Shown here one piece after another: positions 834 to 63,913 of a stretch of 64,000 bases of DNA. The position numbers and the translations under genes are program-made. The notes below the pieces were generated by a model. The model was not told where the DNA came from. It ran no database searches and saw only the letters and a list, made by a program, of their open reading frames with translations. Location of the stretch: positions 23,003 to 87,002 of the forward strand of contig CALKUP010000002.1 in assembly GCA_937996685.1 (NCBI GenBank). Direction: 5' to 3'. This DNA comes from an uncultured bacterium. GTDB taxonomy: Bacteria > Patescibacteriota > Patescibacteriia > UBA9570 > XYC2-FULL-38-9. How positions within the stretch are numbered: the stretch's first letter is position 1; every line of letters begins with the position of its first letter.

Positions 834-2294
834 TTACAACAACGTACTTAAATCAAGGGTTTGAGTAATTTTCAGTTGATCAACAAATTCCTGATCATGA
901 CAGACAACAACAATCGCGCCTTCATAGTTGTTTAAGGCTTCAGCGATTACTGGGAGATGACGGAAGTTGATGTGATTGGTTGGCTCGTCCAAAATAAGTA
1001 GGCCTGGTTCTTGCAAAACAAATCGTGCGTAACTGAGCAAGGCTTTTTGACCTTCTGACAGCGCGCCAATTGGTGTGTGCAGCGCATCGCCCTTTAACAA
1101 AAATTGTGCAGCAGTTTGGAATAATTCTTGTTCACCGCCACGGACTTGAATGGCTTGCAGTTCAGCAAATGCAGTGCTGTCAAAATCAAGGCCAGAAAAA
1201 TCTTGTCGATAATAGCCTTCGCGAATCCCTTCGACAATTTCCATGCCAGCCTCTGTCGCGTTCGCAAGCGCTTCCAATAAAGTTGTTTTTCCGATGCCGT
1301 TTGGTCCAGTGATGTGGAGCATGTCGCCACGACGTAATGTGATGTCGACTTTTTTCTCACGACGTTCATGGTTGACAATGATACCAACGGAGTTCAAATG
1401 GAGAATTGGATTGACCGCGTCTTCTTGGACTGGAATCGTAAATGATCGAATCGTTTTATCTTCTTGGCGAACGCTGACCATGGCCTCTTCACTTTCCTCA
1501 ATTTCATCACGCAACTTACTCGCGAGTTTACGCATTTTACCCCCTTTATTTGAAAAGAAGTTGACTTTGTCTTTGCGATCTTGAATAGTCTTTTTTAATT
1601 GCGCATTTTTTCGCTCTTCACGTTCAATTTGCGCACTAATTTCTTCGACAACGTCAAAGTAATCACCGACGTATTGTTGGGTTTTGTGAGAATAGGAATC
1701 TAGGTGAATGACGGCGTCCGTAAAAGTGTTCAAAAAAGACGCATCATGGGAAATGACAATCACCGTTTTTTCGTAGCCAAGCAAGAAAGCGATTAAGTGA
1801 TTAATGCCATCTTCATCTAAATTATTTGTTGGCTCGTCTAATAGCAGGATGTCTGGGTTTTGCACTAATGCATAGGCAAGCAAGAGACGGGCTTGTTGAC
1901 CGCCGGACAGTTTTCCGACAAGCCAGTCGAGTGGGAGATTGAGGTTGACTGCTTCAAAAACTTTTGCGATCCGTCGATCAAGATCATAAATCGTTTCACC
2001 TTCAAATGCGCGGGCGAAAAAATCAGAAATTGAAAGCTCGAGGCAGTCTCGCGGTACAACTTGCAGGGCAATGCCGATGCTTGCACCGTCATCAATATGC
2101 ATCACTCCGGATTCTGGCTTGAGCTCGCCAGTCATTAATTTGAAAATGGTACTCTTTCCAGCTCCATTTTGCCCCATGATCGTGACTTTGCTGTTTTTGC
2201 GAACACTAAAGCTGGCTTCATCGAGGATGACCTTTTTTTCACCGTATTTATAGGTGACGTTGTTGAATCGGATGGCGATGGCGTTGTTAGACAT
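834..2294 (-). CDS. ABC-F family ATPase (two tandem ABC domains, no membrane domain)
   Basis: Two Walker A motifs (GQNGAGKST; GPNGIGKTT), ABC signature LSGGQQARLLLA, Walker B LLLDEPTN present twice, and no TM segments. Confidence 0.8.
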   Translation of the reverse strand: MSNNAIAIRFNNVTYKYGEKKVILDEASFSVRKNSKVTIMGQNGAGKSTIFKLMTGELKPESGVMHIDDGASIGIALQVVPRDCLELSISDFFARAFEGETIYDLDRRIAKVFEAVNLNLPLDWLVGKLSGGQQARLLLAYALVQNPDILLLDEPTNNLDEDGINHLIAFLLGYEKTVIVISHDASFLNTFTDAVIHLDSYSHKTQQYVGDYFDVVEEISAQIEREERKNAQLKKTIQDRKDKVNFFSNKGGKMRKLASKLRDEIEESEEAMVSVRQEDKTIRSFTIPVQEDAVNPILHLNSVGIIVNHERREKKVDITLRRGDMLHITGPNGIGKTTLLEALANATEAGMEIVEGIREGYYRQDFSGLDFDSTAFAELQAIQVRGGEQELFQTAAQFLLKGDALHTPIGALSEGQKALLSYARFVLQEPGLLILDEPTNHINFRHLPVIAEALNNYEGAIVVVCHDQEFVDQLKITQTLDLSTLL

Positions 2295-2484
2295 GAAAAA
2301 AAATTAATGCGGAATAAAAACTGCCCATGCATACAAGCGAAATACAGGCAGAGAACTGACGTATCATACTGATTTTTTAGGAAAGAGTCAATGTTCTGTG
2401 TGCTTCATAAAACAAACATACAAAAATAGTGTATACTCTATGGTAGGTACGTTAAATAAAAAAATAAGTAACATATGAGGAGTT

Positions 2485-3267
2485 ATGTCAAAAAAAATAC
2501 CAGAGTCTAAAAAGTTTACAAATTTACGTCCTTGGAATATTACGATGTTTTTCTTGCATGCGATTCAAGCGGGTCTCATGTTCGTGCTCAGTAGTGATTT
2601 TTCATTACCGCTGACAACATTGTTTGTGGAATTCGATCCAAAGACAATGATGTTGGGGCAAAACCTCGCAGAACTTGGCATGGTCCGCGTCGGGCCGCTG
2701 GTTGCAGGTTTTCTGGCGTTGTCTGCGCTGGCGCATTTATTGGTTTCATTGCCAGGAATTTTTCAGTGGTATGTTCGCAATCTCAAAAAAGGAGCGAACT
2801 ATGCGCGTTGGATTGAGTACTCTCTCAGTTCTTCATTGATGATCGTTGTTATTGCGATGCTGACTGGAATGTATGACGCAATTAGTTTGGCGCTCATGTT
2901 CTCACTCAACGCGATGATGATTTTGTTTGGTTGGATGATGGAACTCCATAATCAATCAACAAAGAAAACAGATTGGACATCCTACATTTTTGGATGTATT
3001 GCTGGAATTGTCCCATGGATTGCGATTGCGTGTTATCTCGCATTTGCAGGCGAAGGGGATTTCAAAGCGCCAACATTCGTGTATTGGTTATTCTTCTCAA
3101 TGTTCGTGTTCTTTAACACTTTTGCAGTCAACATGATCTTGCAATACAAAAAGGTTGGTAAATGGAGTGATTACACATATGGTGAAAAAATGTACATTAT
3201 CTTAAGTCTGCTTGCGAAAACAGCACTTGCGTGGCAAGTCTGGGCCGGAACACTGCGCCCTGTATAA
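2485..3267 (+). CDS. Heliorhodopsin (7-TM retinal protein, inverted topology family)
   Basis: Strong block similarity to heliorhodopsin 48C12 as I recall it: RWIEYSLSSSLMIVVIA, ILFGWMMEL, FGCIAGIVPWIAI, KWSDYTYGEKMYIILSLLAKTALAWQVWAGTL. The TM7 lysine in the SLLAK context (the retinal Schiff-base site) is present. AGGAG Shine-Dalgarno 5 nt upstream of the ATG. Confidence 0.85.
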   Translation: MSKKIPESKKFTNLRPWNITMFFLHAIQAGLMFVLSSDFSLPLTTLFVEFDPKTMMLGQNLAELGMVRVGPLVAGFLALSALAHLLVSLPGIFQWYVRNLKKGANYARWIEYSLSSSLMIVVIAMLTGMYDAISLALMFSLNAMMILFGWMMELHNQSTKKTDWTSYIFGCIAGIVPWIAIACYLAFAGEGDFKAPTFVYWLFFSMFVFFNTFAVNMILQYKKVGKWSDYTYGEKMYIILSLLAKTALAWQVWAGTLRPV

Positions 3268-3293
3268 AAAAAGTCACATACAACCACGGAATG

Positions 3294-3322
3294 AAAAAGG
3301 CGCGTTTTGCGCTTTTTTCTAT
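3294..3322 (+). terminator. Rho-independent terminator after the heliorhodopsin gene
   Basis: AAAAAGGCGCG tttt GCGCTTTTTT stem-loop followed by a T-run. Confidence 0.5.
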
Positions 3323-3351
3323 ACGAAACAGCAGAAGTGTAGTACAGTGAT

Positions 3352-5172
3352 TTGACGATATTACGTATGAAAAAGAATACATCTACTCCAACAAAAACCG
3401 CAGACACAGCCCTTGCAAAGGATGAGGCTGAATCAAAAGATGCGCCAAATACACCGCCAGAAAAAAAGCAATCAAGCGTGTTTGTTTTATTGGCACCATA
3501 TAAAAAACAGCTGTCATTGCTTGTCGTAGTCGCCTTGGCGATTAATGCATTAGCACTTGTGTTGCCAAAAATTGTATCACACGCGATTGATGATTTTGGG
3601 CGTGGGCAGTTTGATTCACAGCAAGCAAGTATTTTGTTTTTATCGGTTGTGACGACGATTTTCGCGTTAACCTATATTCAAAGTATTTTGCAAACACTTG
3701 CGTCCGAGCGCGTTGGCCGTGATTTGCGTGACCAGCTCTCAGCAAAAATTTCAGAGCAAACCTATGCAACCATTCAAGAGTTAACACCAGCTAAGCTCCT
3801 GACAAACTTAACCTCTGATATTGATTCAATCAAAACATTTGTTGCGCAAGCGCTGGTATCGATGGTCGCATCTGTTGTGACGATTATTGGAGCGAGTGTA
3901 TTATTATTGTCTATTAACTGGCGACTCGCGCTGGCGGTTCTGGCAATTTTGCCAATTATTGCTGGAGTGTTTTTCTTTGTGCTTTCAAAAGTCCGAAAGT
4001 TGTTTGTCCAAACGCGTGAAGTGATTGATTGGCTCAATCGAGTGATTAATGAAAGTATTCTTGGCTCAGCATTGATTCGTGTCTTGAATTCGCAAACACT
4101 CGAGCAAACAAAATTTTTAACAGCCAATGAAAAGGCGAAAAGTTTAGGTCTTGATATTTTGCGGATGTTTGCCGCGATGATCCCGATTATCACCTTTGTT
4201 GCAAATAGCGCGACAGTCATTATTTTGGCGCTTGGTGGTCATTTTGTGATTACTGGCACAATGACACTTGGTGATTTTGCAGCCTTTAATAGTTACTTGA
4301 GTACACTCATCTTCCCAATTTTTGTGATCGGATTTATGAGTAATGTGATCGCGCAGGCGACTGCATCATACGGCCGCATTATGCTGGTATTAGAAGCGCC
4401 GCAAGCGGTTGAGACAGGCGAGCGGCAAGAAACCTTGCGCGGTGATGTTGCGTTTTCTGATGTGTCGGTGGTGTATGGTGAAAAATCGGTTGTGAAAAAT
4501 GTGTCATTTCAGGTTGCTGCTGGAACTAAGACCGCGATTATCGGCCCGACAGCTGGCGGGAAAACGCAGTTGCTCTATTTATTAACCGGATTAATTGAAC
4601 CGCAGTCAGGGGTTGTGTCTTATGATGGGCATCCGATTGCGGAGTACAACACAGCAGCGTTGCGTCGACAAGTTGGGGTTGTGTTTCAAGACAGTATCGT
4701 CTTTCAATTGCCGATCGCAGAAAATATTGCATTTGCAGACACAGTGACAGATGAGGACATGCAAAAAGCGATTGAAACAGCTGAGTTGTCTGATTTTATT
4801 GCAACGCTTCCAGATGGATTGCAAACAGAAGTCTCAGAGCGGGGAACGTCGCTCTCTGGCGGACAAAAACAACGCATGATGCTCGCTCGTGCACTGGCAC
4901 TCAATCCACGTGTATTGTTGCTTGATGACTTTACTGCCAGAGTTGATGCGCGGACAGAAAAAAAGATTCTTGAAAATATTGAAAAAAATTATCCGGACGT
5001 GACATTGATTTCCGTCACGCAAAAAATCGGCTCGATTGAAAAATATGATCAAATTGTGGTGTTGATGGAAGGCGAAGTGCTCGGCACAGGCACGCATCAA
5101 GAACTCTTGCAAACATCACCAGAATACGTGCAAATTTACGATTCCCAACAAAGTACACACGCATATGAATAA
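3352..5172 (+). CDS. ABC exporter, fused permease-ATPase (half of a heterodimeric pair)
   Basis: N-terminal 6-TM exporter domain, then Walker A GPTAGGKT, signature LSGGQKQR and Walker B LLLDD. Overlaps the next gene by 8 nt. Confidence 0.8.
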   Translation: MTILRMKKNTSTPTKTADTALAKDEAESKDAPNTPPEKKQSSVFVLLAPYKKQLSLLVVVALAINALALVLPKIVSHAIDDFGRGQFDSQQASILFLSVVTTIFALTYIQSILQTLASERVGRDLRDQLSAKISEQTYATIQELTPAKLLTNLTSDIDSIKTFVAQALVSMVASVVTIIGASVLLLSINWRLALAVLAILPIIAGVFFFVLSKVRKLFVQTREVIDWLNRVINESILGSALIRVLNSQTLEQTKFLTANEKAKSLGLDILRMFAAMIPIITFVANSATVIILALGGHFVITGTMTLGDFAAFNSYLSTLIFPIFVIGFMSNVIAQATASYGRIMLVLEAPQAVETGERQETLRGDVAFSDVSVVYGEKSVVKNVSFQVAAGTKTAIIGPTAGGKTQLLYLLTGLIEPQSGVVSYDGHPIAEYNTAALRRQVGVVFQDSIVFQLPIAENIAFADTVTDEDMQKAIETAELSDFIATLPDGLQTEVSERGTSLSGGQKQRMMLARALALNPRVLLLDDFTARVDARTEKKILENIEKNYPDVTLISVTQKIGSIEKYDQIVVLMEGEVLGTGTHQELLQTSPEYVQIYDSQQSTHAYE

Positions 5173-6940
5173 TTATCGATTAATAACAAATACAGACGAT
5201 GTTGCTGCGGGCAGTGCTTCGGCGGCGATGAAAAAAATGCGACCGTTAATGACCGGAGAAGGTCGCCAGCTCATTATTGCCGCAATTGCGATCGTGACAA
5301 ATTCAGGCCTGATGCTCGCAGGTCCTATTATTGTTGGTCGTGTTATCGACACCTATATCGTGACAAAAAACTTCACCGGTGTGTGGCAGTATTCATTGTT
5401 GTTGATCGGCATGTATCTTGTAGGACTTGTCGCAAGTTACGTTCAGACACGTGTCATGGGCGGCGTCTCTCAACGCGTGTTATTTCGATTGCGTAATAGT
5501 ATTTTTGATAAGTTGCAAGATTTACCTGTTGCATTTTTTCAACAAAATAAAGCCGGCGATTTGATTTCTCGTATTAACAATGACACAGACAAGCTTGGGC
5601 AATTTTTCTCTCAATCAATCATGCAGTTTATCGGTAATATTTTTATGATTATTGGGTCCGGAATTGCGGTGTTGTCCATTAATTGGCGTTTAGGTCTCGC
5701 GGCATTAGTGCCAGCGGCTGGGTTATTTATCATGACAAAGTTGCTTGGTCCATGGATCAAAAAACGTAACGCAATCAGTATGAAAAGTACTGGCGGGATG
5801 AGTGCCGAAATTCAAGAAAGTCTTGATCACTTTAAGGTGGTTGTTGCATTTAATCGTCGGGATTATTTTCGAAAATCATTTGCCGCTGCCAATGAAGAAA
5901 ACTATCATGCAGCAATTCGATCAGGGATTGCGAACAACACATTTACGCCAGTCTATGGATTTGCGTCTAACCTCGCGTTGTTGATTGTCTTGCTATACGG
6001 CTTTCATTTGATTACGGCTGGGATGTTTACATTCGGTTTATTGATTAGTTTTTTGACATACATCAATCGTTTTTATGACCCACTGCGACAAATGGCAGCT
6101 CTTTGGACGACGTTTCAAGTAGCGCTGGCAGGATGGGATCGCATCCATGCAATTTTAGAAATGGAAACAGATTTGGTTGTATTGCCAAGCGAAGAAGGTG
6201 TGCATGCAGAAGGTGTGCGGACTAGTCTAGTCGAGTTTCGCAACGTTCATTTTGGATACACTGATGAATCAGTGGTGTTGCAACAAGCCAATTTTGTGCT
6301 AGAAACTGGCAAGACATACGCGCTCGTCGGCCCGACAGGTGGGGGAAAAACCACAACAGCCTCATTGATGGCTCGTTTGTTTGATCCAACAGAAGGCACT
6401 ATTTTGTTGAATGGACGTGATTTACGAACCTATACAATTGAAGAGCGTTCACAGGCAATTGGATTCATTTTGCAAGAACCATTTTTGTTCAGCGGGACTG
6501 TTGGAGATAACGTTCGGTACGGCAATGAAGCCTATAGCAACATGACAAATGAAGAGCTTGTGCTTGAATTGAAAAAACAAAACTTAGACGCAGTGATTGA
6601 AAAATTTGACGAGGGTCTTGATACCGTGATTGAAAACGGGGGAGATTCAATGAGTCTTGGGCAAAAGCAGCTCATTGCATTTGTTCGAGCGTTGCTTCGT
6701 CAGCCGCAGCTGTTGATTCTTGATGAAGCAACAGCAAATATTGATACAGTGACAGAACAACTCTTAGAAGACATTTTGCGTAAGCTCCCGAAAACAACCA
6801 CTCGAGTGGTCATTGCGCATCGTTTGAACACGATCGCCGATGCAGATACTATTTTCTTCGTGAATGGCGGCACAATTACAGAAGCTGGTTCAATGGAAAA
6901 AGCCGTTGACATGCTCATGAACGGGAAACGGCAGAGTTAG
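5165..6940 (+). CDS. ABC exporter, fused permease-ATPase (partner subunit)
   Basis: TM domain plus Walker A GPTGGGKTT, signature SLGQKQL and Walker B LILDEAT. Translationally coupled to the upstream paralog. Confidence 0.8.
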   Translation: MNNYRLITNTDDVAAGSASAAMKKMRPLMTGEGRQLIIAAIAIVTNSGLMLAGPIIVGRVIDTYIVTKNFTGVWQYSLLLIGMYLVGLVASYVQTRVMGGVSQRVLFRLRNSIFDKLQDLPVAFFQQNKAGDLISRINNDTDKLGQFFSQSIMQFIGNIFMIIGSGIAVLSINWRLGLAALVPAAGLFIMTKLLGPWIKKRNAISMKSTGGMSAEIQESLDHFKVVVAFNRRDYFRKSFAAANEENYHAAIRSGIANNTFTPVYGFASNLALLIVLLYGFHLITAGMFTFGLLISFLTYINRFYDPLRQMAALWTTFQVALAGWDRIHAILEMETDLVVLPSEEGVHAEGVRTSLVEFRNVHFGYTDESVVLQQANFVLETGKTYALVGPTGGGKTTTASLMARLFDPTEGTILLNGRDLRTYTIEERSQAIGFILQEPFLFSGTVGDNVRYGNEAYSNMTNEELVLELKKQNLDAVIEKFDEGLDTVIENGGDSMSLGQKQLIAFVRALLRQPQLLILDEATANIDTVTEQLLEDILRKLPKTTTRVVIAHRLNTIADADTIFFVNGGTITEAGSMEKAVDMLMNGKRQS

Positions 6941-6972: not shown

Positions 6973-8346
6973 TTGTTTTGTTTGTGTGAGTTGGGGTTTT
7001 TGGATATACTGATTGTCATGCGACAACCACAAAAAATCTTGAATATCATGCATATCGCTGATGCGCTCGTATTTGTGCTTGTTGGGTTTGCGATATTGCT
7101 ATGGGCGCTGGGAGTTGCAGATAATGATGTTTTTGCAACAACTCAAACAACCTTAACCGCTATCGGGCAAATACTCGGACTTTCTGGCATTGTCTTGTTC
7201 GCATTGAATTTGATTATTAGTGCGCGGTTTTTGTGGCTCGAGGCACTGTTCGGTGGCTTGAATCGGCTTTATATTCAACACAGTCGGTATGGGCAGTGGG
7301 CTTTTATTGCATTGCTGTTTCATCCGTTGACGTTGGTGTTTCAATATAGTGCCGGCTCATTTGTTCTCGCGATCAAGTTTTTATTGCCGAGCGATAATGT
7401 AGCGCTAACATTCGGCATTATCGGTTTGTATTCAATGATTGCCTTGATTGTGCTCACGCTTTACATTCGGCCGCAATATCATCTATGGAAGTTGTTGCAT
7501 AAATTATTTGGGGTTGCATTCTTTTTTGGCGGGCTGCATGTTTTATTGATTCCAAGTACACTCAGTCAATACGCCCCATTAAAAATCTACATTCTCACAA
7601 TTGTTGTACTTGGGTTATCTGCGTATGTGTACCGGAGTGTACTCGCGCAGTTTTTGGTGAAGCAATACCGCTACACGGTATTAAGTGTCACACCGTTGAA
7701 TGAGATGATTACGCGTGTGCTGTTGAAGCCGGTCGCTGCGCCGATGCAGTACCGGGCAGGACAGTTTTTGTTTATCCGTTTTATTGACCATGACATTTCT
7801 ACTGAAGCGCATCCATTTAGTATTGTGTCAGAGCCTGGTGCAGAATTTTTAGAAATCGCTGTAAAAAACAGTGGCGATTATACAGCGAGAATGAGTCAGT
7901 TGTCTTCAGGCTCCGAGGCGCTGCTTGAAGGTCCGTTTGGATATTTTTTCGTTTTAGATGGCGCTGTGCAAAAACAGGTTTGGATCGCCGGCGGTATTGG
8001 TATTACACCGTTTATTGGCCGAGTGCGATTGATGATGCACGCAGGACTTGCTGAAGGTGAGTCTGTTGATTTGTATTATTGCGTGCGCAATGAAGCAGAG
8101 GCAGTCTACCTCAACGAACTACGCGCTCTTGAACAGATGTATCCAGAACAATTTCGCGTAATTATATTCGCTTCCGAAACAGAAGGTCGTATTTCTGCAG
8201 AAACAATCGCACAGCGTTCCGGTGATCTATCTGAGGCTGATATTTTTGTGTGCGCACCGCCTGTTATGATTCAGTCATTGAAAAAACAATTTCGAGCAAT
8301 AGGTGTTTCAAAAAGCGCAATTCACTCCGAAGAATTTTCTTTATAA
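6973..8346 (+). CDS. Ferric reductase / NADPH-oxidase-like transmembrane flavocytochrome (NOX/FRE family)
   Basis: N-terminal multi-TM domain with spaced His pairs (HSRYGQWAFIALLFH ... GGLHVLL), then the FAD-binding HPFSI motif and the NAD-binding GGIGITPF motif. Architecture resembles bacterial SpNOX-type enzymes. The start may be an internal Met (7018/7051). Confidence 0.7.
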   Translation: MFCLCELGFLDILIVMRQPQKILNIMHIADALVFVLVGFAILLWALGVADNDVFATTQTTLTAIGQILGLSGIVLFALNLIISARFLWLEALFGGLNRLYIQHSRYGQWAFIALLFHPLTLVFQYSAGSFVLAIKFLLPSDNVALTFGIIGLYSMIALIVLTLYIRPQYHLWKLLHKLFGVAFFFGGLHVLLIPSTLSQYAPLKIYILTIVVLGLSAYVYRSVLAQFLVKQYRYTVLSVTPLNEMITRVLLKPVAAPMQYRAGQFLFIRFIDHDISTEAHPFSIVSEPGAEFLEIAVKNSGDYTARMSQLSSGSEALLEGPFGYFFVLDGAVQKQVWIAGGIGITPFIGRVRLMMHAGLAEGESVDLYYCVRNEAEAVYLNELRALEQMYPEQFRVIIFASETEGRISAETIAQRSGDLSEADIFVCAPPVMIQSLKKQFRAIGVSKSAIHSEEFSL

Positions 8347-8349
8347 GAT

Positions 8350-8709
8350 ATGAAGTACATTACTCTCACAGCGATTATTCTGTTCGTCCTCACAGTTGGC
8401 ACCGTTGGATTGCTGAGCCTCTTGTTTCCAAATGCAACGTATGCGCCAGGGTCTTCAATAAATGGTAATCAAGCAGCACAATCAGTTTTTTCAGCTGCTG
8501 AGGTTGCGCAACATTCAACAACAACGGATTGTTATTTGATTGTGAAAGGTACCGTCTATGACGTCACGTCGTATATCGGGGGTCATCCAGGAGGCGCAGG
8601 AGAAATCACGAGTCGTTGCGGCGGAGAAGTGACGAGTATCTTTACGTCTATTCATTCAAACGCTGCCTGGAACCTCCTTGGGAAATACGCTATCGGAACA
8701 GTGCAGTAA
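8350..8709 (+). CDS. Secreted/membrane-anchored cytochrome b5-like heme-binding domain protein
   Basis: N-terminal hydrophobic signal/anchor. The b5 signature HPGG has a second axial His 24 residues later in an HS context (SIHSNA). The start is 4 nt after the NOX-like gene stop, so they likely form an operon. Confidence 0.65.
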   Translation: MKYITLTAIILFVLTVGTVGLLSLLFPNATYAPGSSINGNQAAQSVFSAAEVAQHSTTTDCYLIVKGTVYDVTSYIGGHPGGAGEITSRCGGEVTSIFTSIHSNAAWNLLGKYAIGTVQ

Positions 8710-14006: not shown

Positions 14007-14519
14007 ATGAAATACACACTTTCTGTTCTGTTTGTTGGCATCCTTGTCTTCACGGGCGCGAGTTGCTCAAAAGGCGACACTGCTGCTGATGCGACAATAC
14101 CGTCACTTTCAACCACGAATACAGAGTCAGTGAATACTGCGGATAACACAAATACGCAAGAAGCAACGACGAATACAAATACAACAACGCCGGTGAATAC
14201 TGCTGTAAATACAGGAAAAACTAGTGGTGTAACAACAAACACCAGTACTGCCGGACTTGAAGAGCCTGCTTCAACTGCAACGACATACTCCGCAGCAGAC
14301 ATTGCAAAACATGCAACAGCGTCAGATTGTTGGAGCGCAATTGATGGAAAAGTCTATAATATTAGCAGTTATATCAACCAACATCCGGGTGGTCGCGTTG
14401 TGACACAAGCCTGCGGTAAAGACGGTTCACAGCTCTTTAAGACACAAGGTGGAAGAGGGCAGCATAGTAGTACAGCTCGCGCACAACTCGCAAGCTTTGA
14501 AATTGGTACGCTGAAGTAA
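14007..14519 (+). CDS. Lipoprotein with C-terminal cytochrome b5-like heme-binding domain
   Basis: Signal peptide with lipobox FTGASC. Thr/Asn-rich low-complexity linker. b5 domain with HPGG and a second His in GQHSS. Paralog of the 8350-8709 product. Confidence 0.65.
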   Translation: MKYTLSVLFVGILVFTGASCSKGDTAADATIPSLSTTNTESVNTADNTNTQEATTNTNTTTPVNTAVNTGKTSGVTTNTSTAGLEEPASTATTYSAADIAKHATASDCWSAIDGKVYNISSYINQHPGGRVVTQACGKDGSQLFKTQGGRGQHSSTARAQLASFEIGTLK

Positions 14520-37369: not shown

Positions 37370-37450
37370 ATAAAAAAAGTGCCGCTGGAAACAGATGCAG
37401 AGTGAACGCATGGGAGCATTCGACTCGTTGTCTGTTTCAAACGGCGGCGG
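37370..37450 (-). terminator. Rho-independent terminator downstream of metK (minus strand)
   Basis: Long imperfect inverted repeat GCCGC..GAAACAGA / TCTGTTTC..GCGGC, followed on the minus strand by an 8-nt T-run. Confidence 0.5.
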
Positions 37451-37479
37451 TGAGGCAGGTGGCTCTCACCCGGCTGTGA

Positions 37480-38640
37480 TCAGTCGAGGACCAATTTCAG
37501 GGCTTCGGCCTGGTCGGTCTCTTCCCAGGTGAACCCGGGGCGGCCAAAGTGACCGTGCGACGCCGTCGCGCGGTAGATCGGACGCTTGAGCCGCAGATGA
37601 TCGACCAGCGCGGCGGGCTTGAGCGGGAAGATCTCACGCACAGCGGCGGTCAGCTTCTCGTCCGAGACGTTGCCGGTGCCGAAGGTGTTGACCATGACGC
37701 TGACAGGCTCGGCGACGCCGATGGCGTAGGCGACCTGGACAAGCGCGCGGCTGGCGTACCCAGCGGCCACGATGTTCTTCGCGACGTAGCGCATCATGTA
37801 CGCAGCGGAACGGTCCACCTTGGACGGATCCTTGCCAGAGAAGGCGCCGCCGCCGTGGCTGCCGTGACCGCCGTAGGTGTCGACGATGATCTTGCGGCCA
37901 GTCAGGCCCGCGTCACCCATCGGACCGCCGATGACGAAGCGACCGGTCGGGTTGATGAAGTAGCGGGTGTTGCTGTCGAGCAGGTGCGCCGGGATCGTGG
38001 ATTCAATGACGTACTTGATGATGCTTTCACGCAGGTCATCGCTCGTCACATCGTCGCTGTGCTGCGAGGAGACGACGACGCTGTCGACGCGCGCGACCTT
38101 GCCGTCGCGGTACTCGATGGTGACCTGGGTCTTGCCATCGGGCCGGAGGAAGGGGAGCGTGCCGTCGCGGCGGACAGCGCTGAGCTTCTCGCTGAGGCGG
38201 TGCGAGTAGTAGATGCTCGCGGGCATGAGCGTGTCGGTCTCGTCGATCGCATAGCCGAACATCATGCCCTGATCGCCAGCACCTTGCTCGCTGTAGAGAC
38301 CTTCGCCTTCGTTGACGCCCTGAGCGATGTCCGGCGACTGCTGCTCCACTGCGACCAAGATGGCGCAGGTGTTGCCGTCGAAGCCGGTGCCGGTGTGCGT
38401 GTAGCCGATGTCGCGGACGACCTCGCGGACGATGGTCGGGTAGTCGACCCTGGAAGTTGCGGTGATCTCGCCAGCGACCAGCACGAAGCCGGTCTTGACC
38501 GCGGTTTCGCACGCAACGCGCGCGTTCGGGTCACCAGCAAGGTGAGCGTCGAGGATGGCGTCGGAAATGTTGTCGCAGAGCTTGTCCGGATGTCCTTCGG
38601 TGACGGACTCGGACGTGAACAGGTAGTTCTGGAGTGCCAT
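37480..38640 (-). CDS. metK: S-adenosylmethionine synthetase
   Basis: MetK motifs [13 protein letters not shown] and [19 protein letters not shown]. Probable true start [11 protein letters not shown] at 38640, with SD AGGAATAAAGG upstream. The coding sequence is about 65% GC, unlike its surroundings. Opposite-strand ORFs 37549-38664 and 38036-38512 are high-GC artefacts. Confidence 0.85.
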
Positions 38641-38821
38641 GTGGCCTTTATTCCTCTGATGTAAAGACAAAAAACGCAGTTGGTTTGCGTCCTCCGTCGA
38701 TTGTGAACTTCCGGTCTAAATCGCTGTAGATGACAGATGTCATCGTTTCAGCTGCCAACAACTTGGATCGGATGCCACCAGTGTAGCAAGTTCTTTTCAG
38801 AAGTCAATAATGACTGTATTG

Positions 38822-41943: not shown

Positions 41944-42537
41944 ATGAAACAGTTTGCCGAAAAAGATGCGCTCTATATTCGTTCACTAACGCAGTGGCAT
42001 CAATGGTTGCAGAAACATCACACACAAAAAACCGGTGTGTGGGTGCTGCATGACACAAAAGAAGCGCGCACAATGACATACGAGCAAATGCGAGACGAAG
42101 CGTTGTGTTTTGGGTGGATCGATAGCGCTGTTCGTAAATCAACTGCTCCGAATAAGAGCCTGCTGTACATGAGTCCTCGAAAGCCAAAAAGTAATTGGTC
42201 AAAGGTGAATAAGGCAGTGGTTGCGCAGCTGATCAAAGAAAAGCGGATGCAGCCTTCAGGTCTTGCAATGGTGAAACTCGCCAAGCGCACGGGCACATGG
42301 ACAGCGCTTGATGATGTAGAAAAAGGTGTTGTCCCAAAAGATTTAGCAGCGGCATTCACAAAAGCAGGTCCAAAAGCTGCGGCGTATTTTGCGGCATTCC
42401 CACCGAGCATTAAAAGAGGAATACTTGAATGGATTCAGTCAGCAAAAAAAGCTGAAACACGAGCAGACCGCATTACAAAAACAGCAACGCTCGCGGCAAA
42501 AAACCAACGAGCGAATCAATACGAAAAAAAGTTATAG
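41944..42537 (+). CDS. YdeI/OmdA-family protein (DUF1801-like)
   Basis: C-terminal LEWIQSAKKAETRADRI-type motif. The likely start is MKQFAEK at 41944 rather than 41893. Confidence 0.45.
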   Translation: MKQFAEKDALYIRSLTQWHQWLQKHHTQKTGVWVLHDTKEARTMTYEQMRDEALCFGWIDSAVRKSTAPNKSLLYMSPRKPKSNWSKVNKAVVAQLIKEKRMQPSGLAMVKLAKRTGTWTALDDVEKGVVPKDLAAAFTKAGPKAAAYFAAFPPSIKRGILEWIQSAKKAETRADRITKTATLAAKNQRANQYEKKL

Positions 42538-42978
42538 CTTTTTTGATTCTTTTTGGATTCCAGACATTGCCATATAGAGCAGTAATCCTAGAGGGCCAGA
42601 CATCAGTGTAAAAAATAAGGCGATGCGCAATTTCAATATGCTTTTATTGTGCTTGATAGTATCGAGCCACAAAAATCGACCAACAAACAAATCCCACACA
42701 AGAATATGCAGCCACACCAGCGTGATGCCAAAATCATTACTCAAGAGCGCGATGATGCTGTCTAATTGAGGATTAGAAACCGCCGGGAGAATGTCTCCAA
42801 AGGCTGGAAGAATAAGAACGGTGTAAATCACGGCAAGCGGAATAAATTGCCAATACCCGCGATTGAGCTTGTGTGTTAGATTGCTGTGCGGCGCGATAAT
42901 CATCGTCAGCCAAAAAGGTAAGACAATGATGTTGATGATTTGAAAAATGAGTGTGTAATTCATGGTGTGTTTTATCAT
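42532..42978 (-). CDS. Small polytopic membrane protein (ABA4-like/DUF4281-like)
   Basis: Hydrophobic ~148-aa product starting MIKHTMNYT. The 90-aa N-terminal extension in the ORF track looks non-coding. Confidence 0.4.
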   Translation of the reverse strand: MIKHTMNYTLIFQIINIIVLPFWLTMIIAPHSNLTHKLNRGYWQFIPLAVIYTVLILPAFGDILPAVSNPQLDSIIALLSNDFGITLVWLHILVWDLFVGRFLWLDTIKHNKSILKLRIALFFTLMSGPLGLLLYMAMSGIQKESKKL

Positions 42979-43086
42979 TTCTATTACTGACATTGTCGCA
43001 CAGGAGAGCGTTGTCTCGCAAGCGCTACTTGCATGATTCGTGTCCTTTCGATAGGGTGAGTGTCCAACTGACATGCGGAGGATGTA

Positions 43087-43374
43087 ATGTCTTGGTTGAA
43101 CAACGCAGGGCTTTTGCGGATTGCGGCGACGCACCCGGCAGCGGTTTCGGCAGCTCTCGGATTTATCCGTGGACTGCAAGAGGCGCGGAAGTTGCCTCCA
43201 ATAGCGGTTAAACAGATCGCTGACAATGCTGATGCTCTCGCTGAACTTGGCCTGCACCCGAGCTATAGCGTCTCGGACTTGCTCCGAGTCGTTCGCTGGC
43301 TTGTGTACATTGCAGATAAGCCGGATTCACTCAGAGATTTCCTGCAAACAATGCGGGCGGACCTGGGTGAATGA
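43087..43374 (+). CDS. Hypothetical protein (GC-rich gene)
   Basis: GGAGGA SD 5 nt upstream of the ATG. Its stop overlaps the start of the next gene. Confidence 0.4.
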   Translation: MSWLNNAGLLRIAATHPAAVSAALGFIRGLQEARKLPPIAVKQIADNADALAELGLHPSYSVSDLLRVVRWLVYIADKPDSLRDFLQTMRADLGE

Positions 43375-43718: not shown

Positions 43719-43836
43719 GATTTCTATTTTGCCTGATGTTGTTGACAATATCAGGTTTTTTATAGTATAGTTTCAAGCGAAATACCGCGCTTTGTAAGCG
43801 GTTTTTATATTGTATTTAATTTCTATCCGTATTTTT

Positions 43837-45618
43837 ATGTCCGCTATTCGTAATGTCGCTATTATCGCCCACGTCGACCATGGAAAAACCACTCTTGTCG
43901 ATGCGTTGCTTACACAATCTCAATCACTCAACCACAAAGAATCAGAACATACAGAATTATTGATGGACAGTAATGATCTTGAACGTGAACGCGGAATTAC
44001 GATTTTCAGTAAAAATGCAGCATTGCAATGGAAAGATACAAAGGTCAATATCATTGATACTCCTGGCCATGCGGACTTTGGTGGAGAAGTAGAACGTGTA
44101 TTGTCGATGGCGGACGGAGCGTTGCTCTTGGTTGATGCGCAAGAAGGGCCGATGCCACAAACCCGTTTTGTATTGAAAAAAGCCCTCGCGATGAAACAGC
44201 GGATTATTGTGATTGTGAACAAAGTTGATAAGCCAGATGCAAATCCACAAGAAGCAGTGAATCGCACATTTGATTTGTTTGTTGAGCTTGGAGCGGATGA
44301 CGCGACATTGGATTTCCCAATTGTGTATGCTTCAGCGATTCAAGGAAAAGCCGGACTCGAAGAAGATATCAATTCAATGACAGACATCACTCCAATTTTG
44401 GATGCGATTTTGGAATATATTCCAGAGCCACAAGGTGATCCAGAAGCGCCGTTGCAAGTGCGTATTACATCGATTACTGCTGATCCATTTAAAGGTCGTA
44501 TTAGTACTGGACGTATCCACAATGGAAAAATCACTGCAGCGCAACCATTGATGCATATCGCGCGTGACGGAAAGCAAACACAAGTCAAAGTAACGTCGTT
44601 GATGGCGGCGCAAGGTCTTGGAAAAGTAGATATTACAGAAGCAGTTGCTGGTGACATTGTGTCGATTGCCGGAATTGCTGATGCAGCAATTGGTGATACA
44701 CTCGCAGATGTTGCAAACCCTGTTGCGCTTCCAGTTGTCGCAATTGATGAGCCGACAGTGCGGATGACATTCATGGTCAACACATCTCCATTCGCAGGAA
44801 CAGAAGGGGAATTTTCAACCAGTCGCCAAATTGAACAACGTTTGATGAAAGAGCTTGAAACAGACATGGCGCTGCGTGTTGTTGCTGACGGTTCTGGTCA
44901 ATGGCTTGTGTCTGGTCGTGGTGAATTGCATCTCGCAATTTTGATTGAACGGTTGCGTCGTGAAGGATTTGAATTTCAAGTGAGTAATCCAACAGTTATT
45001 ACAAAAGAAGTTGATGGCAAAACACATGTGCCGTTTGACCGTGTCACCATCGAAACACCAGATGAATTTTCTGGTGCAATTATTCAAAAGCTCGGTTCAC
45101 GTCGTGGACAAATGCAAGAAATGCGTACCGTGAAAGGTATTACATTTGTAGAATATGTAATCCCAACTCGTGGTTTGTTCGGATATCGCAGTCATTTACT
45201 GACAGATACAAAGGGTCTCGGGATTATGAATTCTTCATTCGAAGGCTATTTCTTGGATCCAGGCGATTGGGTTGAACGTGAAACCGGTTCATTGGTTGCG
45301 CATGAGCAAGGTGATACAACATTATATGGTCTTACTCGCTCACAAGATCGTGGTATCTTGTTTGTTGAGCCTGGAATGAAGGTGTATCGTGGTCAAGTTG
45401 TTGGAACCAACGCTCGTCAAGGCGATTTGGTTGTCCATGTCTGTCGTAAAAAAGAATTAACCAACATGCGATCAAGTGGTGATGGCGTTGCCGAAAACTT
45501 CCGTGTTCCAAAAAAGATGGATCTTGAAGCCGCGCTTGAATACATTACGGATGACGAATTGGTAGAAATTACACCGGAAAATATCCGTATTCGAAAGAAA
45601 AATTTGAACGTGAAATAA
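43837..45618 (+). CDS. typA: Translational GTPase TypA/BipA
   Basis: G1 motif AIIAHVDHGKTTL, DTPGH, NKVD, and EF-G-like domains. The true start is MSAIRNVAII (the ORF track starts 27 nt earlier). Confidence 0.85.
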   Translation: MSAIRNVAIIAHVDHGKTTLVDALLTQSQSLNHKESEHTELLMDSNDLERERGITIFSKNAALQWKDTKVNIIDTPGHADFGGEVERVLSMADGALLLVDAQEGPMPQTRFVLKKALAMKQRIIVIVNKVDKPDANPQEAVNRTFDLFVELGADDATLDFPIVYASAIQGKAGLEEDINSMTDITPILDAILEYIPEPQGDPEAPLQVRITSITADPFKGRISTGRIHNGKITAAQPLMHIARDGKQTQVKVTSLMAAQGLGKVDITEAVAGDIVSIAGIADAAIGDTLADVANPVALPVVAIDEPTVRMTFMVNTSPFAGTEGEFSTSRQIEQRLMKELETDMALRVVADGSGQWLVSGRGELHLAILIERLRREGFEFQVSNPTVITKEVDGKTHVPFDRVTIETPDEFSGAIIQKLGSRRGQMQEMRTVKGITFVEYVIPTRGLFGYRSHLLTDTKGLGIMNSSFEGYFLDPGDWVERETGSLVAHEQGDTTLYGLTRSQDRGILFVEPGMKVYRGQVVGTNARQGDLVVHVCRKKELTNMRSSGDGVAENFRVPKKMDLEAALEYITDDELVEITPENIRIRKKNLNVK

Positions 45619-59014: not shown

Positions 59015-60940
59015 ATGACAACAACACAACAAATTCTCAATAAAATTTTCAAAAACCCCGAGCAGGACCTTTTGATGTTTGATGACTTGTCCAAGATAGA
59101 CATCTACGAAAAAGATGAAGGAAAGTTCTACATCAAGGCTATTTCAAAAATGGATGAAGAGAAAAAAGTTTATGATGCTAAAACTGGAAAAGGCGCTCCT
59201 GAAGAAATTGTTCGACAGCTGTATCTTGTAAAACTCACAAAGCATTACAAGTACCCCAAAGACCTTATTGAGCTTGAAAAGCACGTCAACTTTGGACGTG
59301 AAATAAAGCGTGCAGACATTGTTGTGTACCGACCAGATGGCATTACACCTAAAATCATCATTGAAGTAAAAGCTCCTAATCAAGAGAATGATGTACAGCA
59401 ATTGAAGTCATATCTAAATGCTGAAGGCGCGCCTGTGGGTGTTGCGGTAAACGGCAAAACTCGCCTCATTCTTTATCGTCCATACCCGAAAGATTTTGAT
59501 GACACATTGGATGACATTCCAGCTTCAGATGAAGAGGTTGAAGACGTGCTTGCAAAACGAAAGACCCTGAACGACTTGAGAGAAGATGACCTCAAGGAAA
59601 CTATCAAAACTCTTGAAGAGCTTGTGCTTGCAAACTCAGGACACGATAGCTTTGAAGAAATCTTCAAGATCATATACGCCAAGCTTTTTGATGAAAAAGA
59701 AGCATTAAGCCGTCCAAATCAAGAGCTTCACTTCAGAAAAAGTCCGACAGGAAAACCCGAAGAAACAAAACGCATCATTGACGAACTTTTTGAAGAAGCA
59801 AAAGCAGAATGGTCTGATGTGTTTGAGCGTACTGATAGGATAAAGCTCAGTCCTGAGCATCTTTCTGTGTGTGTCGGGGAACTTCAAGATGTTCGATTGT
59901 TCGGGGCAAACCTGCGCATTATTGATGAAGCATTTGAGTATCTCTTGCCAGATGTTGCTAAAGGCAAGAAAGGTCAATACTTTACACCGCGCGTTGTCAT
60001 CGATATGTGTGTTCAGATGATGAACCCGCAAAAAAAAGAATACGTTATTGATACTGCTTGTGGGAGCGCTGGTTTTTTGGTGCATGCCATGCAGTATGTT
60101 TGGAAAAATTTACCCACTCTTGAAGCACGGAAAGAATATGCAAGTAGATATTTGTGGGGTGTAGATTTTGACGAGAAATCAACAAAAATTAGCCGCGCAA
60201 TTATGTTGATTGCGGGAGATGGCAAGAGTCATATTTTCAAGTCATCTTCATTAGATACCCGAGAGTGGCCTGAGCGTTTCAAAAGTGAATTACAAGATTT
60301 GAATCTTGTACAGGAGTTTGATGACTATGAGCAAAATCGAGAGAATCGAGCTACATTACAACACCTCGAATTTGATGTGCTTCTCGCTAATCCGCCATTC
60401 GCAGGCGAAATTAAAGAGAAGCATCTCTTGACTCAGTATGTTCTTGGTAAAAACAATAAAGGCAAGCTTCAAAATAAGGTAGAGCGACACTTGCTCTTCA
60501 TTGAACGCAACCTTGAGTTTGTAAAAGCAGGTGGTCGTTTAGCGGTTGTGTTGCCACAAGGCATCTTTAACAACACAAGCCAAGAGTATGTTCGCAAACA
60601 CATAATGCGGAAAGCGCGCATTCTTGCGGTTGTAGGGCTGCATGGAAACTCTTTTAAGCCTCACACAGGAACAAAGACATCAATCATCTTCTTGCAGAAG
60701 TGGGCAGATGAGGAGCTTGATGCAAGCGGTAGTCCGAAGGTTGCTGACTATCCGATTTTCTTTGCTACTCAAAAGCAATCGTTCAAAAATAACAGTGGCG
60801 ATTACATCTTTGAGAAAGACAAGGGCGGTCAAATTGTTAAAGACGACAACGGTAATCCTAAATATCTAAGTGACCTTGATGAAATCGCTGAAGCGTTTGT
60901 GGCTTGGGGCAAAGAGCAAGGTCTTAGCTTTCTGAAATAA
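59015..60940 (+). CDS. hsdM: Type I restriction-modification N6-adenine DNA methyltransferase subunit with N-terminal HsdR_N-like (PD-(D/E)xK-like) extension
   Basis: Motif IV NPPF (LANPPFAG), motif I region DTACGSAGFL, and the HsdM helical domain. The N-terminal ~170 aa contain D-IVVY...IIIEVK resembling the HsdR N-terminal nuclease-like domain. Confidence 0.7.
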   Translation: MTTTQQILNKIFKNPEQDLLMFDDLSKIDIYEKDEGKFYIKAISKMDEEKKVYDAKTGKGAPEEIVRQLYLVKLTKHYKYPKDLIELEKHVNFGREIKRADIVVYRPDGITPKIIIEVKAPNQENDVQQLKSYLNAEGAPVGVAVNGKTRLILYRPYPKDFDDTLDDIPASDEEVEDVLAKRKTLNDLREDDLKETIKTLEELVLANSGHDSFEEIFKIIYAKLFDEKEALSRPNQELHFRKSPTGKPEETKRIIDELFEEAKAEWSDVFERTDRIKLSPEHLSVCVGELQDVRLFGANLRIIDEAFEYLLPDVAKGKKGQYFTPRVVIDMCVQMMNPQKKEYVIDTACGSAGFLVHAMQYVWKNLPTLEARKEYASRYLWGVDFDEKSTKISRAIMLIAGDGKSHIFKSSSLDTREWPERFKSELQDLNLVQEFDDYEQNRENRATLQHLEFDVLLANPPFAGEIKEKHLLTQYVLGKNNKGKLQNKVERHLLFIERNLEFVKAGGRLAVVLPQGIFNNTSQEYVRKHIMRKARILAVVGLHGNSFKPHTGTKTSIIFLQKWADEELDASGSPKVADYPIFFATQKQSFKNNSGDYIFEKDKGGQIVKDDNGNPKYLSDLDEIAEAFVAWGKEQGLSFLK

Positions 60941-60942
60941 CT

Positions 60943-63878: not shown

Positions 63879-63913
63879 CAGGGCAGCGCTCTAACCAGCT
63901 GAGCTACGCCCCC
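63840..63913 (-). tRNA. tRNA-Asp (anticodon GUC)
   Basis: Reverse complement GGGGGCGTAGCTCAGCTGGTTAGAGCGCTGCCCTGTCACGGCAGAGGTCGCGAGTTCGAGTCTCGTCGCTCCCG; anticodon loop CTGTCAC. Confidence 0.8.

Follow-up and report, generated by a model that had tools for sequence, protein, structure and literature searches.

Introduction

Does a heliorhodopsin encoded directly before an ATP-binding cassette (ABC) exporter act on that exporter, or does it serve as a photosensor for a partner encoded elsewhere? The question is raised by a heliorhodopsin (HeR) gene found in a 64,000-nucleotide stretch of contig CALKUP010000002.1; "the window" herein means the whole of that stretch. The locus pairs a compact, intact HeR of a genome-reduced Patescibacterium with a TM287/288-like exporter, as in the only characterized membrane-partner system. 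Well-defined HeR loci of this kind are possible test cases for HeR output. Glutamine synthetase, a photolyase, and a heterodimeric multidrug resistance (MDR) ABC exporter have been reported as HeR partners (PMC11109279; PMC12873467).

HeRs have been described before in this part of the bacterial tree. A survey of the candidate phyla radiation (CPR)/Patescibacteria collected 115 rhodopsin sequences from 86 genomes, with HeR identity inferred for all except 17 and a check for the SxxxK motif applied (Chiriac et al. 2022, PMC9166423). The ABY1 class is among the HeR-carrying CPR classes (PMC9166423), and an oxidative-stress sensing role has been suggested for CPR HeRs (PMC9166423; PMC8612252). 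The family, its occurrence in the phylum, the missing retinal pathway, and retinal scavenging have all been published previously.

The window gene encodes an intact heliorhodopsin

The HeR open reading frame (ORF) of 260 amino acids lies on the + strand at 2485..3267, exactly where the first-pass annotation had set it. It matched the Pfam family PF18761 (Heliorhodopsin) with 326.9 bits (gathering cutoff 26.7), over profile positions 1-242 of 242, and the NCBIfam equivalog NF038020 ("heliorhodopsin HeR") with 334 bits against a cutoff of 100. Heliorhodopsin was the sole Pfam family at E <= 0.01, and no Bac_rhodopsin match was obtained. When the protein was compared with all PDB chains by phmmer, heliorhodopsins alone were returned, with E-values of 2.5e-73 for TaHeR (6is6) and 3.9e-61 for 48C12 (6su3; 6su3 and 6uh3 both at about 1e-61). 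The motif in the seventh transmembrane helix (TM7) is SxxxK, unlike the DxxxK of type-1 microbial rhodopsins. The sequence blocks from which the family had first been recognized, RWIEYSLSSS, ILFGW, FGCIAGIVPWI, and KWSDYTYGEKMYIILSLLAKTALAWQ, were each found in the translation.

The exact HeR sequence has no record in a collection of 15 billion proteins, nor in the assembly collection. The nearest public HeR proteins, P0001 and that of the closest genomic relative, locus L001 (contig CAZBLE010000006.1), are 93-94% identical to it. The best named matches are "heliorhodopsin HeR" entries of the Patescibacteria group, Kerfeldbacteria, and Dojkabacteria. A metagenome scan for nearer relatives returned none above 78% identity, and the near-lineage sample is two genomes.

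The residues of the chromophore site were mapped by aligning the protein with its 120 closest database homologs and with the TaHeR and 48C12-type sequences from PDB alignments. K245 in TM7 is homologous to the Schiff-base lysine of both characterized proteins (Table 1). This lysine is present in 120/120 homologs, and the counterion E111 and the histidines H25 and H84 are invariant too. The cytoplasmic-cavity residues N105, R108, W109, Y112, E153, Y230, and E234 are in place, and S80 and W250 also match named residues of 48C12 and TaHeR. Taken over the homologs, the chromophore-site and cavity residues are invariant or near-invariant. Departures from the consensus (shared by at least 90% of sequences) are found only at L202, L243, T246, and A247; they are conservative, and A247 is the residue of 48C12 and TaHeR. 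The protein also keeps the invariant FFN211 motif in TM6 and carries the S116/N142 pair at the "SNap" positions of TM3 and TM4.

The three-dimensional structure was modeled with AlphaFold2 from a 38-sequence alignment. The model (mean pLDDT 88.9, pTM 0.84) has seven long helices and the beta-hairpin in extracellular loop 1 (ECL1) that is typical of heliorhodopsins, with strands at 40-51 and 56-68. In a Foldseek search against the PDB, the template modeling (TM) scores were 0.90/0.94 for TaHeR 6is6, with a root-mean-square deviation of 2.1 A, and 0.86 for 48C12 6su3, against 0.65 or less at 11-16% identity for type-1 rhodopsins. Lysine and arginine residues number 15 on the N-terminus and intracellular loops (ICL) 1-3 versus 4 on ECL1-3 and the C-terminus. 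This positive-inside count agrees with the inverted topology of heliorhodopsins, with the N-terminus in the cytoplasm.

The HeR proteins of the window and L001 are 94% identical, and their genes 87% identical. The 15 substitutions fall mostly in the N-terminus and ECL1. The synonymous and nonsynonymous distances are dS 0.78 and dN 0.030, giving dN/dS 0.039. The gene is thus intact and under strong purifying selection. Profile scores, the residue alignment with two structures, the predicted fold, the topology, and selection all agree, and the reading of the first-pass annotation, a heliorhodopsin with an intact retinal-binding lysine, is upheld. The window ORF encodes a genuine, intact heliorhodopsin.

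Comparison with characterized heliorhodopsins

TaHeR, from Thermoplasmatales archaeon SG8-52-1 (6is6/7u55), is the best solved match, with 51% identity over the structural alignment. It shares the Schiff-base lysine, the glutamate counterion, and the histidine pair, and its ICL2 and ICL3 are nearly equal to those of the window protein (ELHNQ.T..T.WTS; LQYKK.GKW..Y..GEK). Its source organism is likewise without a retinal pathway (PMC9296517). TaHeR differs in its host, archaeal rather than Patescibacterial, in its slow photocycle, and in having Ala/Thr at the "SNap" positions, where the window protein has Ser116/Asn142 like 48C12.

48C12, the founding member (6su3/6su4/6uh3), came from an actinobacterial fosmid. 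Its residues H23, S76, H80, N101, R104, W105, E107, and Y108 are conserved in the window protein, as are S112, N138, E149, Y226, E230, S237, and K241. The S/N pair common to both proteins has been linked to faster photocycle kinetics (PMC12873467), and by this analogy S116/N142 predicts 48C12-like, not TaHeR-like, kinetics. 48C12 differs by having Q213 where the window protein (position 217) and TaHeR have Met, and its ICL1 and ICL2 are markedly unlike those of the window protein.

The published CPR HeRs (PMC9166423; NCBI "heliorhodopsin HeR [Patescibacteria group bacterium]") share the phylum, the family, and the TM7 SxxxK motif with the window protein. The window motif is SLLAK; the commonest in the CPR survey are SLVAK, SLIAK, and SFVAK (PMC9166423).

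Host of the gene

The host was assessed from composition and from the best matches of HeR and TypA. The GC content is 42.1% in HeR versus 43.8 +/- 4.2% in the window. The best named matches of the housekeeping GTPase TypA (43810..45618) come from Kerfeldbacteria, Magasanikbacteria, Falkowbacteria, and Patescibacteria, and one of them shares a 598,550-bp Kerfeldbacteria contig with the HeR homolog P0017. The rest of the window holds a streamlined gene set, including a class II ribonucleotide reductase, TopA, RelA/SpoT, ParAB, Mfd, MetK, and DprA, and many proteins without any family match. By these signs the HeR gene seems native to its genome, that of a Patescibacterium of the ABY1/Kerfeldbacteria type. 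A recent horizontal origin of the gene was considered and ruled out by the host-typical GC and by HeR and TypA best matches from the same groups.

To our knowledge, HeRs are reported missing from diderms, and Patescibacteria lack an outer membrane. The Patescibacteria assignment from the TypA and HeR best matches gives this HeR a monoderm host. L001, L003-L006, and other third-party-annotation records of metagenome-assembled genomes are labeled "uncultured Gammaproteobacteria bacterium"; their HeR and neighbor genes match Patescibacteria, and the label is probably a placeholder or a wrong taxonomy.

Organization of the locus

The features of the locus are collected in Table 1. The first-pass annotation had placed HeR between an ABC-F ATPase and an ABC exporter pair, and Pfam confirms both flanks. 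The ABC-F protein best matches a ribosomal-protection-like ABC-F family of NCBIfam, with 311 bits, which is under the cutoff of 380. Its ortholog in L001 is 89% identical and keeps the adjacency to HeR.

Table 1. Features of the heliorhodopsin locus and of related elements in the window, with motif and residue equivalents.
Feature	Position	Strand	Description	Basis or remark
ABC-F-type ATPase	834..2294	-	two nucleotide-binding domains (NBDs), without membrane domain; divergent from HeR	Pfam ABC_tran x2
Promoter-like TTGACT-17-TATGAT	2363..2391	-	directed towards ABC-F	consensus scan 10/12; both hexamers kept in L001
-10-like element TGTATACT	2430..2437	+	candidate HeR promoter	~48 nt upstream of start codon
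Shine-Dalgarno-like GAGGAG	2477..2482	+	2 nt before ATG (short spacing)	likewise directly before ATG in L001
HeR coding sequence	2485..3267	+	260 aa, ATG start	ORF list, Pfam, NCBIfam, PDB matches
H25			His pair of Schiff-base cavity	48C12 H23, TaHeR H23 (residue map)
H84			His pair of Schiff-base cavity	48C12 H80, TaHeR H82 (residue map)
E111	2815..2817 (codon)	+	counterion, TM3	48C12 E107, TaHeR E108 (residue map)
S241			SxxxK motif (SLLAK)	48C12 S237, TaHeR S234 (residue map)
K245	3217..3219 (codon AAA)	+	Schiff-base Lys	48C12 K241, TaHeR K238 (residue map)
Hairpin with U-tract, AAAAAGGCGCG-UUUU-GCGCUUUUUU	3293..3319	+	weak candidate intrinsic, possibly bidirectional, terminator	between HeR and ABC pair
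ABC_A	3367..5172	+	type-I exporter half-transporter, degenerate NBD	Pfam ABC_membrane + ABC_tran
ABC_B	5165..6940	+	type-I exporter half-transporter, consensus NBD	Pfam ABC_membrane + ABC_tran
Walker A			ABC_A GPTAGGKT (degenerate)	ABC_B GPTGGGKT (consensus)
Walker B			ABC_A LLLDD (Asp for catalytic Glu)	ABC_B LILDE (consensus)
H-loop			ABC_A VTQ (Gln for His)	ABC_B IAH (consensus)
Signature			ABC_A LSGGQ (consensus)	ABC_B MSLGQ (degenerate)
ABA4-like membrane protein (PF14108/DUF4281)	42532..43257 (ORF); likely true gene ~42535..42966	-		Pfam 114 bits

The two half-transporter genes overlap by 8 nt. For ABC_A, the mechanical ORF begins at TTG 3352, and ATG 3367 is the likelier start. The best bacterial PDB matches are TM287 (3qf4_A, 291 bits) for ABC_A and TM288 (3qf4_B, 317 bits) for ABC_B, and neither protein reached an NCBIfam equivalog cutoff. 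The encoded motifs mark the pair as a heterodimeric exporter of the TM287/288 kind, in which one ATP site is degenerate and the other is consensus; it falls in the same class as OmrDE and TmrAB.

HeR and the divergent ABC-F gene are parted by a 190-nt AT-rich spacer of 32% GC. In L001 the octamer TGTATACT recurs unchanged at the equivalent position, within a spacer that has otherwise diverged. Because it has no -35 match, the octamer was missed by the sigma-70 consensus scan, which also returned no promoter on the + strand over 2200..3500; the scan is uninformative for this organism, so its silence is not evidence of absence. No promoter is recognizable in the 99-nt gap between HeR and ABC_A (3268..3366), where the same scan is equally uninformative. 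Because GAGGAG and TGTATACT are both kept in L001, HeR probably has a promoter of its own, and a ribosome-binding site of its own is plausible.

The hairpin after HeR contains four G-C pairs and one G-U pair, with A/U-tract extensions. Its minimum free energy is -17.1 kcal/mol (z = -1.64), which 10 of 200 shuffles equal, and it is missing from the calls of a consensus terminator scan. Its end is only about 48 nt from ATG 3367 of ABC_A on the same strand, and transcription may read through from HeR into the ABC genes. The gene had been described beforehand as monocistronic with its own Shine-Dalgarno sequence and terminator. That description is supported in part: the promoter and Shine-Dalgarno elements are plausible, being kept in L001, and the terminator is weak. 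An Rfam scan of the window returned three tRNAs only, with no riboswitch or leader near HeR.

Neighboring genes in related loci

Related loci were gathered from species-representative genomes (80) and from metagenomes and exact-match look-ups (85), 165 in total. Exporters were searched with separate transmembrane-domain (TMD) and NBD queries against all called ORFs, since tblastn reduced to the best high-scoring segment pair could miss diverged exporters. The first tblastn comparison and the TMD/NBD repeat, which included the 85 further loci, gave the same answer. Among the 165 related loci, type-I exporter half-transporters were found near HeR only in L001.

The gene order in L001 is ABC_A-ABC_B, ABC-F (opposite strand), HeR, versus ABC-F (opposite strand), HeR, ABC_A-ABC_B in the window. 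Comparison of window 834..6940 with L001 4832..10783 reveals a block swap, in which the ABC-F plus HeR block and the ABC_A plus ABC_B block have traded places, kept their orientations, and remained neighbors. The L001 exporter pair lies within 1.7 kb of HeR. Survival of the four-gene neighborhood through this swap is compatible with selection for proximity and is no demonstration of it. After HeR, L001 carries two extra genes, one for a 589-aa protein without a family match and one for a 458-aa DAO-type FAD oxidoreductase.

HeR relatives at 73-80% identity have no adjoining exporter, and none was found at the L011 and L002 loci. Two tandem HeR paralogs stand in place of the exporter in L081. 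In L083 an exporter lies 7.6 kb from HeR, and an alpha/beta hydrolase is next door. The HeR neighbors in L085 are an unknown gene, a Ferric_reduct-like gene, and sensor kinases. The paralogs of L081, a 365-kb Patescibacteria contig, are P0008 (8001..8771) and P0020 (11119..11889), 77% and 74% identical to the window HeR; they share a strand and are 2.3 kb apart, two genes of unknown function lying in between.

Similarly, unbiased clustering of the genes within four positions of HeR in 78 loci brought out no conserved partner. A generic 243-aa ABC ATPase formed the largest cluster and occurred in 10 of the 78 loci at variable positions, and NBD-only ABC ORFs made up 19 of 1,369 ORFs, which is no enrichment. 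Small recurrent neighbors were seen in Patescibacteria/Chloroflexota loci (including L058, L018, L026, and L060): DUF2177 at position -1 (4 loci), MsrA (4), and DUF1295 (4). A pyrimidine-dimer DNA glycosylase was found near HeR in 5 related loci. Some of these recurrent neighbors echo groups of Cho et al. and fit light, UV, and oxidative-stress themes; none is frequent.

The cytoplasmic loops were compared as well. ICL1-3 of the window protein are 79-86% identical to those of relatives without ABC neighbors, with the basic residues shared. The loops differ only at S228 and Q94, where the relatives have Lys and Glu, respectively, and a lineage-specific change in the cytoplasmic loops was looked for and not found. 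The basic residues of ICL1 are R98, K101, K102, and R108. Since clade members without ABC neighbors have an equally basic ICL1, this feature is uninformative for a link to the exporter. The cytoplasmic loops are conserved while the neighbors are not, which points to a partner or function shared by the clade and encoded elsewhere. The absence of a conserved neighbor over 165 loci, together with near-constant loops, argues against inferring function from adjacency in this HeR clade.

Source of the chromophore

The scan against Pfam at E <= 1e-5 covered 56 non-overlapping ORFs of the window, each 70 aa or longer. No match was obtained to blh, phytoene synthase/desaturase, and lycopene cyclase (crtB/I/Y), or RPE65 families. 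The first-pass annotation had stated that the window holds no retinal or carotenoid biosynthesis gene; this is true of the canonical genes, and one ABA4-like protein of a carotenoid-linked family is present. Because no retinal-synthesis gene lies in the window, scavenged retinal is the most likely source. Acquisition from the environment or a host is an already-published hypothesis for CPR rhodopsins and is not new: CPR rhodopsin carriers without blh have been proposed to get retinal from hosts, and TaHeR takes up retinal rapidly via an opening (PMC9296517).

In plants, the ABA4 family is tied to neoxanthin synthesis and carotenoid metabolism. The window ORF of this family has 241 aa; only three close homologs are detectable, each of about 143 aa, and its N-terminal ~100 residues are probably a non-coding, spurious extension. 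The protein was considered as a carotenoid link to HeR and set aside, with three homologs and none near HeR in the 80 genome loci. No bacterial function of DUF4281 is described in papers mentioning DUF4281.

Proposed function and alternatives

We consider it likely that the protein is a functional, retinal-binding, non-transporting photosensor that signals by its loops to a clade-wide partner and uses scavenged retinal. By homology with characterized HeRs, the seven-helix protein would be inserted with its N-terminus in the cytoplasm and would bind all-trans retinal, most likely scavenged from other organisms, as a protonated Schiff base at K245, stabilized by the counterion E111 and the H25/H84 cluster. 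Light would isomerize the retinal and give a long-lived O-like state without ion movement, the proton being handled inside the E111/H25/H84 cluster with no net transport. The long-lived late intermediate would then shift the conserved basic cytoplasmic loops, and these would modulate a partner, protein or process, that these bacteria share and that is encoded elsewhere than at the HeR locus.

Several points weigh against this proposal. HeRs are abundant, and a physiological output is known for a minority of them. Retinal binding and the light response of the window protein would follow from homology, and signaling to a partner would follow from analogy with three characterized cases. The topology count is computational, with helix and loop boundaries set by homology, not independently. 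The visible share of the genome is 64 kb only, so that a retinal pathway may lie elsewhere, and the one carotenoid-linked family in the window, the ABA4-like protein, lies 40 kb from HeR.

The adjacent TM287/288-like exporter is the sole local partner candidate, and a weak one. The precedent is OcHeR-OmrDE of Omithinimicrobium cerasi, in which the HeR gene likewise adjoins two type-I half-transporter genes with one non-canonical ATP site, and ICL1 is positively charged as in the window protein (PMC11109279). OmrDE is bound by OcHeR, which increases the kcat/Km of the exporter 2.8-fold in light and 1.8-fold in the dark; drug transport by OmrDE is ~3-fold higher in light than in the dark, and the ICL1 arginines are essential (PMC11109279). 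By this analogy, the window HeR would be a light-dependent activator of ABC_A/ABC_B, its loops binding the exporter TMDs and light raising ATPase or transport activity. The overlapping half-transporter genes 99 nt downstream on the same strand, their asymmetry of the TM287/288, TmrAB, and OmrDE type, the four basic ICL1 residues, the weak terminator, and the pair retained in L001 despite the rearrangement all favor this activator role. However, the likeness to OmrDE is one of layout and motifs, known here from the genes, and the pairing is not conserved among the relatives: L011, L002, L081, and L085 have no type-I exporter within 8-10 kb of HeR, and that of L083 is 7.6 kb away. We estimate that a genome of ~1,000 genes carries one or two such pairs, so that adjacency in a single lineage out of many would be near the chance expectation. 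In O. cerasi, helR follows the ABC genes within one predicted operon, whereas in the window HeR comes first, followed by the hairpin and the gap, and in L001 the opposite-strand ABC-F gene stands between the pair and HeR. The window HeR also has a conserved promoter-like element of its own and a hairpin after its stop codon, and its ICL sequences, those of clade members without ABC neighbors, carry no interface-specific change. The activator role is therefore judged unlikely. The adjacency is a lineage-specific arrangement that may give a weak hint of function, and on present evidence it is not distinguishable from chance plus local synteny. It offers a cheap experiment and no discovery. A bolder form, in which HeR of the window and L001 lineage independently became a light-dependent modulator of the neighboring exporter, as a second, remote origin of HeR-ABC pairing, must likewise be regarded as doubtful. 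If true, the pairing of one actinobacterium would have arisen again in an ultra-small, probably host-dependent, retinal-scavenging bacterium.

The other readings concern the protein itself. It could be mainly a light-harvesting, two-chromophore protein that takes exogenous xanthophylls through a lateral fenestration, with the ABA4-like protein perhaps aiding carotenoid handling. According to a 2025 preprint, 91% of HeRs would have a fenestration that binds carotenoids, with Asn at a key position (10.1101/2025.11.27.691015); FFN211 is kept here, the PF14108 protein is in the window, and exogenous pigments could reach HeR in a cell that, as the literature has it for Patescibacteria, is without an outer membrane. 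The preprint argues from docking and from the comparison of structures; neither binding nor energy transfer was measured in it (10.1101/2025.11.27.691015). An antenna alone defines no output, and the ABA4-like gene shows no co-occurrence with HeR, so this role seems quite improbable. Still less probable is an opsin that acts without chromophore or light, in a structural or lipid role, or that is idle because retinal is rarely obtained. No retinal pathway is visible in the window, some HeR relatives come from groundwater metagenomes ("NC_groundwater" locus titles), where light is absent, and light-independent activity is reported for a proteorhodopsin (PMC10730872). Against this, none of the pocket positions, the retinal lysine and the counterion included, varies among 120 homologs, and dN/dS is 0.04, as expected under selection for chromophore binding. 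Light-gated or light-driven proton transport can be given hardly any weight. One viral HeR branch, that of V2HeR3, does transport protons, and the window protein has the residues E153, Y230, and E234 of the water-filled cytoplasmic cavity. However, most HeRs do not transport, and transport in the viral branch, compared here by its description, needs the TM6 carboxylate E191 (PMC12873467), whereas the predicted TM6 of the window protein (residues 199-218, VYWLFFSMFVFFNTFAVNMI) contains no Asp or Glu. The closest characterized relatives, TaHeR and 48C12, are non-transporting, and the extracellular half is hydrophobic in HeR structures (10.1101/2025.11.27.691015).

Other features of the window

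The S-adenosylmethionine synthetase gene metK, at 37480..38670 (-), matches the equivalog TIGR01034 with 585 bits. The GC content over 37401..38600 is about 65%, a sharp island limited to metK against the window average given above, and the gene is a candidate for recent transfer from a high-GC donor. The exact MetK sequence has no record in the assembly collection. Were an actinobacterial host the donor, this would bear also on the source of retinal.

A NOX/ferric-reductase-like membrane flavoprotein with Ferric_reduct, FAD_binding_8, and NAD_binding_1 domains is encoded at 6973..8709 (+). Directly after it lies the gene of a small protein that has a cytochrome-b5 domain and, at its N-terminus, a hydrophobic segment, and the pair is kept in L001. 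A second cytochrome-b5 protein is encoded 5 kb further, at 14007..14519 (+), and cytochrome-b5-like genes were also seen within ~1 kb of HeR in L005 and L039. The NOX-like and cytochrome-b5 proteins could form a transmembrane electron-export module, which would be unusual for a fermentative Patescibacterium.

Near the end of the window, a type I restriction-modification system is encoded by an HsdM-like gene (59015..60940) and an HsdS-like gene (60943..62358), followed by a large serine recombinase (62355..63878) whose end overlaps an opposite-strand tRNA gene (63840..63913). From its layout, 59015..63913 may be an element that has integrated, or can invert, at a tRNA gene.

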